Virus record (IMG/VR): IMGVR_UViG_3300035665_000023
Coordinates: 9,018 to 73,017 of that record
Length of the DNA: 64,000 nucleotides
Direction: 5' to 3' (one strand)
DNA from: a virus
A program made the translations under genes and the position numbers. Under the pieces are notes generated by a model, which saw only the letters and a program-made list of their open reading frames with translations, searched no databases and had not been told where the DNA came from. This document shows, one piece after another, positions 13,830 to 16,587 of the stretch. The stretch's first letter is position 1. Each line of letters starts with the position of its first letter.

Positions 13830-14581
13830 TTTGCATCGTGTTTTAGTTCTTCGCTACGGTATGGTCTGCGTCTTGCGTCTTTCTTTGGTAGTAACGCCGG
13901 TGGATTGCATCGTTCTTTGGTCCTTAAATTCACTGCGGTTTCGGCGGATTCCCAGCACAATCGTTGTAACCTCGGTTCTTGCATCGTTTTTTGGTTGTTA
14001 AATTCGCGAAGGTCTGTTCCTTTCGTCTGCTCATCTACTCACCTCCTCTGCATCGCTCTTTGGTCTTTTAATCCGCTGCTGTGTCAGCGTCCACTTTACA
14101 GAAGTTGCGCTCTAACCTTGCATCGTTTTTTGGTTGTTGAGTTCACTGCGGTCATTCAACCCCCAAAATGAAATGTCTGCACTTGTCACCTTGCATCGTT
14201 CTTTGTTTATTAACTTCACTGCGGTGGTTCAGGTTTCCGGTTTTCGGGGATCAGCCTCTTGCATCGTTCTTTGTTTATTAACTTCACTGCGGTACTGATC
14301 GTCACGCGATGAAAAGCGAGAAGCCAGTCTTGCATCGTTCTTTGTTTCTTAACTTCATTGCGGTCCAGCAATTTATCCCGAATTAGCCGTCTACAGTCTA
14401 CTTGCATCGTTCTTTGTTTATTAACTTCACTGCGGTGTGAAGACAAGGTGGAGTTACTCGAATGGGCTGTTGCTTGCATCGTTCTTTGTTTATTAACTTC
14501 ACTGCGGTCAAGATGAAGCGAGCGACTGACGAGGTCTTTGTGCCCCTTGCATCGTTCTTTGTTTCTTAACTTCACTGCTAT
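13830..14581 (-). CRISPR. CRISPR array: 11 repeats (6 near-identical, 5 degenerate), 10 spacers of mostly 32-38 bp
   Basis: 36-bp CTTGCATCGTTCTTTGTTTATTAACTTCACTGCGGT at 14190, 14258, 14329, 14401, 14473, 14546; degenerate copies at 14117, 14047, 13978, 13904 and ~13830; unique spacers. Confidence 0.95.
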
Positions 14582-14642
14582 AGCCCTACGTTTCCATAAA
14601 CGAAAACGCAGGGTTCAAATCACCTTTCGCGAGAGGCTAGAG

Positions 14643-15074
14643 TTAGACCCTGGCTCCCACACATAAGCTCAACGTCTCTTTGAGGCTTGTGTTCTCGACA
14701 CGTAGCCGCTCGCATTCCTTCTCAGCGGCGATACACTTTTCCTTCCACGAAGGCACAAGACGCTCTCGCGGCTTCTTATCCATTTCTATCGTCTCAGCGA
14801 TGAGGTCTCGGATGTTGTGCCTTGTCCAGTCATTGCGATCTGGATGCGCTTTTAAAACTGCGTGTAATGTCAAAAACGATGCAGCAGTATCGCTCAACTC
14901 CTCATCTAGGAAATCGAGTTCATTGGTTCCGTGCTCTGCGTGCCATGCCCGAAAGTCCTCGTCTTCGTAGCAATCCGACAGGAGAGCGACTCTGTCGAAT
15001 AGCAACTCGCTACCCTTCTTGCGCAACTCCCTCGCTTCGTGCATTTTGAGTTCCCATTTTTTTGCTCTTGCCAT
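14643..15074 (-). CDS. Unknown 143-aa helical protein between the Cas12f-like gene and the array
   Basis: GAGGAG RBS before MARAKKW; C-terminal coiled coil. Confidence 0.8.
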   Translation of the reverse strand: MARAKKWELKMHEARELRKKGSELLFDRVALLSDCYEDEDFRAWHAEHGTNELDFLDEELSDTAASFLTLHAVLKAHPDRNDWTRHNIRDLIAETIEMDKKPRERLVPSWKEKCIAAEKECERLRVENTSLKETLSLCVGARV

Positions 15075-15136
15075 TTTGTAACTCCTCGTAAAACGTTCGA
15101 TAAACAACACAACACTTACAAACTGGGAGCCGCCGC

Positions 15137-16414
15137 TTACGCTGCATCTCCACGCTTTGGATCACTAACTTTCCGCACGCCACGCACGCCGTTGGTGGTA
15201 GCCTTGGGCTTCTTTGGCGGCTTCGGCTTTTTGCCATACTCAATACCCTCCGATTCACACTTCGACGCTAACATGGTTCCGAACTGAAAGTAGTCCCAAC
15301 TCATTGCCGATATCCTGTCATTGCCAACAGTCGATAAGTACCGGCCCTCTCTGTTTTCGTCCCTGGGTTGAAGATACACAATGCGACCACATCCCTCACG
15401 TATAGCAAGGTTAACAACCTGCTTTGAGACTTCGTTGTTGTACCTCTTGGTAAAATCCTTCCATCTACTTGAAAGTTTCGTCCACACCGCATCCGCCCGC
15501 CTGCGTCCGTGACCTTTCTGATTCGATCCAGACCATCGATAGTGTGTCTTGCGACTATTTCGTTCTCTGATAATGGCTCGTCGCGCGTGTTCTACGTGAG
15601 CGCCATTGCCACCGAACCGCCACGACCCACGTCCATTGATTGCGACTCGCCACGGACCTGTTTTCGCAGGACGCACATACAACACTCGGTCGGCGCTCAA
15701 CTTCTCGCGGACCTTGTTCGGCATTTCGTAAGCGATAGAGACAAACCATTTCCCGCGATCATAGATCAGCGAAGACCCCTTCCATGCGTATTCGCCAGCG
15801 ATAATTTTTTCGACAGTGGATCGGACGGACGCACACTTTCTTTTTGCCAACATCAATTCGCACGGCTCAACGACACTCTTCCCGTCAGCAAGTCTCTCAA
15901 TGCGAAGCTCGCAAATGTACTTGTCGCCTTGCTTGAACAGCTTGGCGTTGTCGCGGTCGAAGGGGATCGGTTGCGGTCGCGTGAACGAGGGTAATGACTC
16001 GTTTCCAAAAAGAATTGAAACCCACCCAGGGAGTGACCCAGAAGCGGCCTTCCGTGTATTAACCTTGCTCTGCCAAGCATTGGTCAACAGTCCGCGCGTT
16101 CGGACATTAACGCTTGAAAACTCTGCCGACATAATCCGGTAGAATGATCTTGCATCTGCTGATTTCGTTAATGGTTCTTCGACTGCCTTGCATGGCCATT
16201 GCGGCTTATCGCCTCGTTTTGTTTCTTGCCACGCTTTGTATGCATCGAAATGCGATCGAAGCTTATCCGCCGATCCATTATTCGCGTGATGGCAAAGCCA
16301 CACTTGCCAAAGCCTGTTTGTCATGCGTTGACATGCGACAGCAAGCTCCTTCCATGCGTCACGACGCTCTTTTGCAAACCCAAAGATTTCGATTCTTGCT
16401 GCTCGTATCGCCAT
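15137..16414 (-). CDS. Nuclease-dead Cas12f/TnpB-family protein (~425 aa)
   Basis: By-eye match to Cas12f1 blocks (ILFGNESLPSF, EKIIAGEY, KWFVSIAYE, KGHGRRR, VNLAIREGCGRI, WDYFQF...KCESEGI). RuvC-I GIDLG reads YVRPA, RuvC-II MEDL reads YLQP, and the Zn finger and RuvC-III are absent. Confidence 0.85.
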   Translation of the reverse strand: MAIRAARIEIFGFAKERRDAWKELAVACQRMTNRLWQVWLCHHANNGSADKLRSHFDAYKAWQETKRGDKPQWPCKAVEEPLTKSADARSFYRIMSAEFSSVNVRTRGLLTNAWQSKVNTRKAASGSLPGWVSILFGNESLPSFTRPQPIPFDRDNAKLFKQGDKYICELRIERLADGKSVVEPCELMLAKRKCASVRSTVEKIIAGEYAWKGSSLIYDRGKWFVSIAYEMPNKVREKLSADRVLYVRPAKTGPWRVAINGRGSWRFGGNGAHVEHARRAIIRERNSRKTHYRWSGSNQKGHGRRRADAVWTKLSSRWKDFTKRYNNEVSKQVVNLAIREGCGRIVYLQPRDENREGRYLSTVGNDRISAMSWDYFQFGTMLASKCESEGIEYGKKPKPPKKPKATTNGVRGVRKVSDPKRGDAA

Positions 16415-16446
16415 TATTCCGTGTTCCCTATCCGCCTTGCATCGTG

Positions 16447-16585
16447 TAATAAAAGCCCGGCAGGGTTTTTTACGCCCTGCCGGGCAACCAAAGAACGAAG
16501 CGAGTGCTGCATGGCTATCAAAGTCCATAGCTTTTCTCGCTTCCGGTCGTGCAATCGACCGTCACGGCATCAACTGCCGTTGTTC
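16447..16585 (-). ncRNA. Putative tracrRNA
   Basis: Anti-repeat at 16486-16504 (16/19 to the repeat 3' end), three short hairpins at 16514-16580, and an 11-bp GC hairpin followed by TTTTATT on the minus strand. Confidence 0.7.
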
Positions 16586-16587
16586 CC

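Follow-up and report, generated by a model that had tools for sequence, protein, structure and literature searches.

A phage-borne CRISPR locus encoding a Cas12f homologue without a RuvC active site, a covarying tracrRNA and a conserved partner protein

The window analyzed here (the whole 64,000-nt stretch of DNA under study), which belongs to a phage from lake water, carries a compact CRISPR locus whose effector, the Cas12f homologue dCas12f, has lost its catalytic residues and its Zn finger, and which also comprises a tracrRNA, a co-inherited partner gene, a leader and a multi-spacer array. The interpretation that we favor, on balance probable though far from assured, is that the locus encodes a cleavage-free, RNA-guided DNA binder derived from type V-F and aimed at rival mobile elements.

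All of these elements lie on the minus strand from 16578 to 13830, in the order tracrRNA, dCas12f gene, partner gene, leader and array (Table 1), and each of the minus-strand elements claimed in an initial annotation of the window is present at the position assigned to it. The phage origin that had also been proposed is supported by a PHROGs scan of window ORFs and by CheckV, which gives the parent virus record (73,017 nt) a completeness of 100. In the window and in loci L001, L007, L008, L011 and L020 the cassette sits within a phage recombination/replication module, and relatives were found in Planctomycetaceae and Pirellulaceae MAGs. The reported lack of cas1 and cas2 holds over the whole 73,017-nt record, where searches for Cas1 (PF01867) and Cas2 (PF09827) returned no matches; Cas1 was not found in the MAG bearing L007 either. 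Among the 25 window ORFs scanned against PHROGs neither a Tn7 protein nor a sigma factor is named; a TniQ family search gave no match, its control also matching nowhere; and an Rfam scan of the window returned no families at the gathering score.

Table 1. Features of the dCas12f locus (window coordinates)
Feature	Position	Strand	Description
tracrRNA	16448..16578	-	conserved covarying RNA upstream of the dCas12f gene; 5' end approximate
anti-repeat	16485..16499	-	TTCGTTCTTTGGTTG, complementary to the repeat 3' half AAACAAAGAACGA
solitary repeat fragment	16436..16445	-	copy of the final 10 nt of the repeat (ACGATGCAAG); the dCas12f start codon lies 21 nt downstream
dCas12f	15137..16414	-	425-aa Cas12f homologue; R248 and L348 replacements; without Zn finger and RuvC-III; basic Lys/Pro tail
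partner	14643..15074	-	143-aa protein without known family; GAGGAG upstream
leader	14582..14642	-	61 nt from the partner stop codon (14643) to repeat 1
CRISPR array	13830..14581	-	11 repeats, 10 spacers
spacer S5	14226..14257	-	first 21 nt identical to the conserved int-alpA core (Rfam RNA motif RF02996)

Sequence, profile and fold together place dCas12f with AsCas12f. In a phmmer search of the PDB, residues 104–392 match AsCas12f (7wju, 8dzj, 8j12) with E about 1e-15 (7e-16); a profile built from 60 family sequences reaches AsCas12f at E 2e-39, SpCas12f1 at 8e-34 and OsCas12f at 3.5e-32; and PADLOC classifies the protein as Cas12f (CAS-V-F effector, E 1.9e-31). Against the NCBIfam guided_TnpB model it scores 38.9 bits, below the cut-off of 100. 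An alignment-based AF2 model (mean pLDDT 91.1) was used for structural comparison, a single-sequence model (pLDDT 37.8) having been discarded. The top Foldseek matches to this model are all Cas12f (AsCas12f 8j12_A, E 2.9e-20), and its VIA Z scores are 20.6–21.7 to AsCas12f and 18.8–21.7 across V-F1 Cas12f, so that the resemblance to Cas12f first suggested by sequence extends to the fold. RNA- and DNA-contacting blocks that it has in common with AsCas12f (PQPIPFD, KGHGR) are kept.

The active site is not. In HMMER alignments, IMGIDLG of AsCas12f lies opposite VLYVRPA and CGTIQMEDL opposite CGRIVYLQP, R248 replacing the RuvC-I Asp and L348 the RuvC-II Glu. Of the 425 residues, none beyond 392 aligns with AsCas12f; the C-terminus lies 33 aa past the last aligned RuvC helix, in a Lys/Pro sequence (KKPKPPKKPK...), and the protein ends before both the Zn finger and RuvC-III. 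Residues 409–415 of this basic tail form a GVRGVRK motif. Both replacements, as well as the exchange of Zn finger and RuvC-III for a Lys/Pro tail, had been recognized in the initial annotation, and they prove to be properties of the family: all 60 aligned relatives (27–78% identity; consensus LxPGxxxPW at RuvC-I and VYxQP at RuvC-II) have the D-E-D loss and short tails in common, and none of the 60 tails contains CxxC. The family search returned 574 representatives with E<=1e-3, of which 170 reach E<=1e-30, giving a family of at least 170 clusters (50% identity); it is unannotated, and where sources name a member the name is "hypothetical protein" or, once, "transposase". The concern that close homologues might be intact, and this copy a recent pseudogene, can be set aside because this large, conserved family as a whole lacks the D-E-D triad and the Zn finger, and dN/dS of dCas12f against the L008 homologue is 0.059.

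The tracrRNA motif precedes the effector gene in all 17 related loci with upstream DNA. It comprises hairpin 1, hairpin 2 (GGTCGATTGCACGACC), a conserved GCGAGAAAAGCT, hairpin 3, AGCACTCGC, the anti-repeat, a terminator hairpin (16484-16456) and a U tract. RNAalifold analysis of 15 loci yields 19 base pairs, 10 of which show compensatory changes, and 97.9% of cells in the structure are paired, versus 84.5% in shuffles and 26–43% when the structure is slid. The anti-repeat is matched to the repeats of its own locus: duplexes with the own repeat average -19.5 kcal/mol versus -10.4 for foreign repeats, and in seven of ten loci it is the own repeat that gives the strongest duplex. The locus thus has the array and the tracrRNA with repeat-pairing anti-repeat by which type V-F loci are recognized. 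Between tracrRNA and start codon lies a solitary fragment of the repeat, a similar copy of which (AACGACGCAAG) occurs in L008 and L009; more distantly related loci show no evident counterpart. A role for this fragment as a self-targeting autoregulatory guide was considered and not adopted: it is confined to the closest relatives, and its GCAAG flank cannot be a PAM because every spacer of the array has the same flank before it.

Repeats of the array are 36 nt long (type ACCGCAGTGAAGTTAATAAACAAAGAACGATGCAAG) with a period of 68–74 and spacers of 32–38 nt; the last four, at the leader-distal end, are degenerate. The leader contains a conserved CTCGC(A/G)AAA motif and, after it, a hairpin, and the same combination follows the partner stop codon in L003, L007, L008, L009, L011, L013, L014, L016 and L018. 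Arrays occur in related loci, together with the same partner, and reach 24 repeats (L001); L038 and L041 also carry arrays, and none was seen in L021 and L039. Comparison of the closest loci shows that arrays turn over between near-identical strains. L008 and L009 have the same proteins but different leader-end spacers; the window array has no spacer in common with either, their dCas12f being 88% identical to that of the window. In run X19 a strain that is ~97.5% identical over the genes has differences that cluster at spacer positions, and the array is polymorphic among lake metagenomes; roughly 24 lake-water metagenomes from 2020-2025 contain the locus.

The partner gene lies directly downstream of the dCas12f gene in all 15 related loci with downstream DNA, and is present in six of eight distant viral loci, where the gene order is different; it was not seen in the distant loci L043 and L044. 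The N-terminal domain of its protein is conserved, acidic (pI 5.3) and helical, and the C-terminal helix, also conserved, is leucine-zipper-like (SWKEKCIAAEKECERLRVE); this coiled-coil end suggests that the partner dimerizes. No family match was obtained in Pfam, PHROGs, PADLOC or NCBIfam, PDB sequences gave coiled-coil noise alone, and scores in an Atlas features search were below 0.9. The description of the partner as a tightly linked protein of no recognized family therefore stands. Searching genome and viral contigs with the partner alignment returned no loci, the single pattern used having missed even known loci, and a search for fused or longer dCas12f–partner forms gave none, a result of little weight. 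The idea of a split nuclease, in which the Zn finger and RuvC-III would come from the partner, was considered and rejected. The one hint of expression is a 245-nt contig from an RNA library, which maps to 14677-14921 within the partner gene and may reflect DNA carry-over.

One of the ten window spacers has a match, and it points to mobile elements. A 20-mer scan of IMG/VR covered S1, S2 and S5: the S5 20-mer occurs in nine contigs, those of S1 and S2 in none. The S5 20-mer also lies beside an integrase in a further contig (G005:C113), and there and in three of the seven viral loci scanned Rfam labels the site int-alpA RNA. The match begins exactly at spacer base 1 and is partial (21 of 32 nt contiguous, 28 of 32 at best); because the site is a widely conserved motif, it says little about the actual source of the spacer. 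Pooling the window with 10 related loci gave 54 spacers, of which S5 alone matched any of the loci compared. No window spacer matched elsewhere in the phage's own 73 kb, and those of L007 matched nothing in the MAG that carries them. A blastn search (distant mode) of the array against GenBank phages gave one 37-nt match of 86.5% identity (E 0.06), which we attribute to chance; in 401 sampled Planctomycetota genomes, matches outside the S5 site were at chance level (best per-genome E 0.0015). Comparison of the spacers with IMG/VR and planctomycete genomes, from which a PAM was to be derived, thus identified one mobile-element protospacer family and yielded no PAM.

Several known systems resemble this locus in part. 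As far as the last RuvC helix, the V-F1 effectors AsCas12f, SpCas12f1 and OsCas12f have the fold and domain order of dCas12f, and they also share with it small size, a tracrRNA with 36-nt repeats, and a guide 3' of the repeat; they differ from the phage-borne system in possessing the RuvC triad and Zn finger and in having no 143-aa partner gene. The sigma-E-associated dCas12f of Bacteroidota is likewise C-terminally truncated, nuclease-dead and Cas12f-derived (Hoffmann et al., PMC13472631). Its structure (PDB 9n9c) aligns with VIA Z 19.8 over 326 residues, and it too has a dedicated protein partner; however, the phage locus has no rpoE neighbor and its partner no sigma-factor signature, the sigma-E system uses chimeric single guides where the phage has a multi-spacer array and separate tracrRNA, the family profile reaches 9n9c at E 1e-17, far weaker than active AsCas12f, and the one resides on Bacteroidota chromosomes, the other in Planctomycetota phages. 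The initial annotation knew of no system with this layout, a claim that holds only in part. Dead Cas12f beside arrays is already in print: a dCas12f cluster adjoining CRISPR arrays, with repression by binding proposed, is mentioned by Hoffmann et al. (PMC13472631, legend to Extended Data Fig. 1a,b), the published example being a Chitinophagaceae MAG in which an efflux promoter is targeted, and inactivated Cas12f branches without RuvC-III have been described (Altae-Tran et al. 2023, PMC10691335). The sections of these sources at hand, with which the comparison is by description only, make no mention of phage carriage, a conserved partner or tracrRNA analysis, and the literature searched yielded no description of the phage clade and its partner.

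Interference without cleavage is also known from other branches. Cas12m protects by binding rather than cutting (PMC11013384), and interference without target cleavage is reported for both Cas12m and Cas12c (PMC11013384, PMC12669027); these are larger proteins of other Cas12 branches, for which the sections at hand describe no partner protein. The VIA Z score of dCas12f to Cas12m is 13.5 versus 21.7 to Cas12f. Cas12m is not known to use a tracrRNA. TldR proteins are described as compact, nuclease-dead relatives within the TnpB/Cas12 family; prophages often carry them, and guide RNAs direct their binding to DNA. They descend directly from TnpB, use a single omega-RNA-like guide and have fixed host targets (flagellin, opp). 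By contrast, dCas12f has a tracrRNA, an array with turnover and a Cas12f origin, its closest relatives being Cas12f and not TnpB.

Under the favored interpretation, the anti-repeat of the tracrRNA would pair with repeats of the pre-crRNA and the duplex would be processed, probably by host RNase III. The truncated Cas12f would load the dual RNA and form R-loops on matching DNA, probably as a dimer like active Cas12f, which binds one RNA as a homodimer (Cas12f1; PMC12255294). Lacking all three RuvC carboxylates and the Zn-finger (TNB) domain, it would not be expected to cleave, and the bound complex would be a roadblock on competing mobile elements, hindering their transcription or replication; these competitors would be other temperate phages, satellites or integrative elements that share the Planctomycetota host. 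The partner may be needed for, or may strengthen, this effect, and new spacers would enter at the leader end through machinery that the phage does not encode. That competitors are the object is backed by the match of one spacer to a mobile-element motif and the lack of self or host matches.

An alternative that we consider unlikely, though deserving of weight, is that dCas12f serves as an address module through which the partner brings a host machine (RNA polymerase, a helicase/nuclease, or replication/recombination factors) to the R-loop, as TniQ does in the parallel case of Cas12k. The retention of the partner across deep divergence and different gene orders, its conserved N-terminal domain and coiled coil, the setting of the cassette among recombination and replication genes, and a conserved motif in the dCas12f tail (VRGVRK), conceivably a docking peptide, are all consistent with recruitment, for which the sigma-E-associated dCas12f offers a precedent (PMC13472631). 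The partner, however, matches no sigma factor, nuclease, helicase or other family in the databases searched, fusions with dCas12f were not found (weak evidence), and rapid spacer change without self or host matches fits defense better than fixed regulation. The same spacer data make it improbable that dCas12f is a domesticated transcription factor, akin to TldR or to the array-linked dCas12f of Bacteroidota, with guides that tune host or phage genes in lysogeny control or host takeover. Nuclease-dead TnpB and Cas12f relatives are indeed known regulators, some of them prophage-encoded (PMC13472631), and the solitary repeat fragment lies just upstream of the dCas12f start codon; but neither the phage's own 73 kb nor, for L007, the surrounding MAG is matched, the 401 Planctomycetota genomes are at chance level apart from S5, and arrays of up to 24 repeats differ in spacers between close relatives.

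The remaining two readings carry very little weight. A dead Cas12f could protect the phage as an anti-CRISPR decoy by soaking up host type V-F crRNA or tracrRNA, a role similar to one proposed for phage-encoded, partly inactivated Cas9 (PMC12669027). A decoy would nevertheless sit oddly in a locus that has both a changing array and a tracrRNA of its own, the anti-repeat and the repeats covarying; moreover, the family profile was found in only one of the 401 sampled Planctomycetota genomes, that of the L007 carrier, a MAG in which the L007 repeat was seen in no further array. We judge this role very improbable. Loss of the catalytic residues and C-terminal domain might instead mark a functionless, decaying remnant of a Cas12f system, a view that is scarcely credible, being already contradicted by conservation: the low dN/dS, 170 clusters at E<=1e-30 with the same architecture, and the maintenance of tracrRNA, leader and partner.

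Returning to the roadblock against competitors, we offer a broader and more tentative proposal, to which we give somewhat less than even credence: the locus may represent a new virus-borne type V subtype in which a truncated, dead Cas12f, working only in combination with a hitherto undescribed accessory protein, acts as a programmable silencer of mobile elements, including satellite-like or integrative elements targeted at a conserved regulatory RNA motif, and which gains spacers although it brings no Cas1–Cas2; heterodimers of two dCas12f paralogues may form in some relatives from huge phages. If the favored interpretation is correct, the locus would be a natural, compact (425 aa), phage-borne CRISPR-interference system with a dedicated helper protein, extending the recent finding that dead Cas12f and TnpB relatives have been recruited for non-cutting jobs. 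It would raise the question of how an array grows without an adaptation module; its partner may reveal a new way of coupling an R-loop to a downstream effect, and protein, RNA and partner together could serve as a small programmable DNA-binding tool. It would also bear on how viruses fight with each other and with their satellites.

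Judged from its sequence, the window's 425-residue Cas12f homologue (dCas12f, protein P0001) is a Cas12f whose active site is missing. With dCas12f as query, phmmer matched AsCas12f among PDB sequences at E ~1e-15, and a profile of 60 relatives reached AsCas12f at 2e-39, SpCas12f1 at 8e-34 and OsCas12f at 3.5e-32, whereas the sigma-E-associated dCas12f (9n9c) was reached at only 1e-17. The PADLOC Cas12f model matched at 1.9e-31 and Pfam gave no match for the protein. The top Foldseek matches of an alignment-based AF2 model (mean pLDDT 91.1) were Cas12f throughout (8j12_A, E 2.9e-20), with VIA Z values of 21.7-20.6 for AsCas12f and 19.8 for 9n9c; the likeness to Cas12f put forward in the initial annotation thus holds in sequence, profile and predicted fold. 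HMMER alignments place VLYVRPA (R248) opposite AsCas12f IMGIDLG at RuvC-I and CGRIVYLQP (L348) opposite CGTIQMEDL at RuvC-II, and show homology to AsCas12f ending at residue 392, beyond which 33 residues form a basic tail (KKPKPPKKPK...GVRGVRK...) that lacks cysteine pairs; the proposed replacement of the RuvC-I Asp and RuvC-II Glu and the Lys/Pro tail are both seen there.

These losses are shared by a family. An all-against-all search of 50% clusters gave 574 representatives at E<=1e-3, including 170 at E<=1e-30; of the 150 matches listed, most are 400-480 aa in length and most align to about query residue 393. None of 60 aligned members (27-78% identity) keeps the RuvC-I Asp or the RuvC-II Glu; all 60 have short tails, none with CxxC, and eight viral loci farther removed (L038-L045; 24-33% identity to protein P0234) are truncated in the same way. 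The blocks PQPIPFD, KGHGRxRA and WDWFQ, common to AsCas12f, are nearly invariant, and dN/dS against the 88% identical copy of related locus L008 is 0.059, at a dS (1.27) near saturation. Since homologues are not intact and the losses are family-wide, dCas12f is a member of a family and not a broken copy. Tails (P0001 residues 393-425 and relatives) are basic, VRGVRK recurs in the closer relatives (a loose pattern fits 41 of 215 tails examined), and many family proteins end in AA, AG, AV or GV, which may recall protease-recognition tags. Two viral contigs (122 kb and 364 kb) each carry a tandem pair of dCas12f paralogues (L042, 3411-4736 and 5370-6572; L045, 3390-4700 and 4802-6013), with a tracrRNA-like motif before each paralogue, one partner gene following and no KGHGR block in the second paralogue; a heterodimer is possible. 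Relatives were sited in one Planctomycetaceae MAG and one Pirellulaceae MAG, and the family profile matched one of 401 sampled Planctomycetota genomes, the carrier of L007. Of the 24 runs listed, 23 contained half or more of the words sampled from the locus; all 23 are lake-water metagenomes (2020-2025), three of which may be the source of the window DNA, and together they may be one campaign.

The source record is a single IMG/VR virus sequence of 73,017 nt (CheckV completeness 100), of which the window covers bases 9018-73017. The locus had been described correctly in every item that could be checked. The phage has no Cas1 or Cas2 match.

Features of the dCas12f cassette in the window
Feature	Position	Strand	Details
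Intergenic tracrRNA region	16587-16415	minus	173 nt, structured RNA
tracrRNA terminal hairpin and U tract	16484-16448	minus	
Cas12f-like gene	16414-15137	minus	425 codons
Partner gene	15074-14643	minus	143 codons, own GAGGAG ribosome-binding site
Leader	between partner and array	minus	61 nt
CRISPR array	14581-13830	minus	11 repeats x 36 nt, spacers 32-38 nt

The final four repeats are degenerate. Around the cassette lie phage genes for a terminase, Holliday-junction resolvase, replication initiator, exonuclease VIII homologue, phrog_3657 protein and integrase. Recombination genes (RecT/RecE/exonuclease VIII) on one side and, on the other, replication genes (initiator, DnaC-like loader, resolvase) flank it here and at L001, L007, L008, L011 and L020, and integrases are near it in L013 and L020. 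The final 10 nt of the repeat recur singly at 16436-16445 (minus), after the terminator of the tracrRNA and ahead of the start codon of dCas12f; L008/L009 have a near copy. Elsewhere in the window, a single 4707-aa ORF (29908-44031, minus), one fifth of the genome, is a giant 'polyvalent' phage protein with ART-PolyVal (ADP-ribosyltransferase of polyvalent proteins, E 1.4e-25) and Phage_L5_gp82 domains; a tRNA-like gene (20463-20540, minus) just downstream of the exonuclease VIII gene has a four-base anticodon (cggg) and no amino acid assigned by ARAGORN. Twelve DNA repeats of period ~72 nt at 60674-61532, flagged by the array finder, are not CRISPR and are coding DNA of a 682-aa DUF285-repeat protein (60119-62167, minus; E 9.6e-80).

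Upstream of the dCas12f gene, a motif of hairpin, GCGAGAAAAGCT, hairpin and AGCACTCGC is present in all 17 related loci with upstream DNA (L010 and L016 start inside the gene; L004-L006 are duplicates). RNAalifold predicted 19 pairs over 15 loci, ten with compensatory changes; 97.9% of cells pair on this structure versus 84.5% in shuffles (matched by 0 of 500), falling to 26-43% when partner columns are slid. A variable segment after CTCGC complements the 3' half of the same locus's repeat, at a mean duplex energy of -19.5 kcal/mol for the own repeat versus -10.4 for foreign repeats, and the own repeat is the best choice in 7 of 10 loci. At L018 (~1005-1030) a tRNA-like 3' end (GGTTCGAATCCTGCACCAGCA) lies directly upstream of the tracrRNA, which suggests that a tRNA gene served as the integration site of an element.

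Homologues with the same partner had been proposed as a check, and a partner homologue (35-84% identity, tblastn) lies directly downstream of dCas12f in all 15 loci with downstream DNA (L015, L017, L019 and L022 end inside the dCas12f gene). The partner HMM matches the downstream ORF in six of the eight distant viral loci, without a match in L043 and L044 (identical results for both), and L038, L040 and L041 have the order gene-array-partner. In the protein collection, many dCas12f clusters and partner clusters have contigs of equal size; no fused dCas12f-partner protein was found, itself weak evidence. In the partner, a variable basic linker separates a helical N-terminal domain (pI 5.3) from a helix of consensus SWKERALAAEKECERLRAE; both domain and helix are conserved, and the helix matches coiled-coil and leucine-zipper noise only. 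Pfam, PHROGs, PADLOC and NCBIfam do not name the protein. A metatranscriptome library contains one contig, of 245 nt, that maps to the partner gene, though DNA carry-over is possible.

Hoffmann et al. (PMC13472631) place a dCas12f cluster near CRISPR arrays and give a Chitinophagaceae example aimed at an efflux promoter; Altae-Tran et al. (PMC10691335) report inactivated Cas12f branches and a stage with RuvC-III lost before the array shrank. Among the inactivated type V variants in section 9 of the 2025 CRISPR classification (PMC12669027), none is a phage-borne dCas12f with a partner. No description of a phage-borne dCas12f with this partner was found in openly readable main-text literature, and the variant appears new.

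Besides the window, an array comes after the partner at L001, L002, L003, L007, L008, L009, L011, L013, L014, L016 and L018; at L020 the order is tracrRNA-array-gene-partner, the L010 and L012 contigs stop ~105-125 nt past the partner, and no array was seen at L021. The leader carries a conserved motif, CTCGCAAAA, then a hairpin. L008 and L009 have the same proteins and older spacers in common and differ in leader-end spacers. The genes seen in run X19, a lake metagenome, are ~97.5% identical to the window (58 differences in 2293 nt), and the listed differences in its array concentrate where the spacers lie; runs X10 and X14 have the array split over many small contigs.

None of the window's spacers has a match within the 73 kb of the phage itself, L007 spacers do not match their own 8.4-Mb MAG, and GenBank phages gave no credible match to the window array. 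The search of IMG/VR and Planctomycetota genomes that had been proposed for deriving a PAM yielded a mobile-element motif match for spacer S5, but no PAM. S5 is the only notable match in the 401 genomes: 21 contiguous identities from exactly spacer base 1, in the stretch that separates an integrase gene from the following ORF on contig G005:C113. The surrounding element (~10100-16000) contains a tRNA, integrases, int-alpA RNA, a ParB/topoisomerase-like gene and a small terminase subunit; as structural genes were unrecognised among the ORFs scanned, it resembles a satellite-like integrative element. A 20-mer scan of IMG/VR found S5 in nine contigs and S1 and S2 in none. Rfam, over eight sources scanned, assigns the S5 site to int-alpA RNA (RF02996), above gathering in L036, L026 and L028 and below in L031, where full-length agreement is best (28/32 nt). 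Downstream genes in the viral contigs are varied (HNH_3, T5orf172, HTH proteins); the int-alpA-like core in phage contigs L028-L036 also precedes treble-clef genes, suggesting a context broader than the family name. S5 has the same sense as the motif RNA, so its guide would find its complement in DNA rather than in the RNA itself. At each of the ten S5 sites position -1 is T and position -2 is A or C, a property of the int-alpA motif, so that no PAM can be claimed.

How the system is used may be read in several ways. A decaying remnant is scarcely credible beside a dead state that is family-wide at low dN/dS, and an anti-CRISPR decoy is most improbable. Fixed gene regulation, set beside leader-end spacers that differ between loci with the same proteins, is improbable too. 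Recruitment of another activity by the partner, which is linked to dCas12f in all 15 assessable related loci and in six of eight distant viral ones, is a serious though rather unlikely alternative. With dCas12a, repression is strongest with the template strand as target, and phage ICP1 has turned a CRISPR system against a satellite. On balance, we regard it as probable that dCas12f is a cleavage-free RNA-guided DNA binder, which phages would direct at competing mobile elements and which would need the partner as an accessory.
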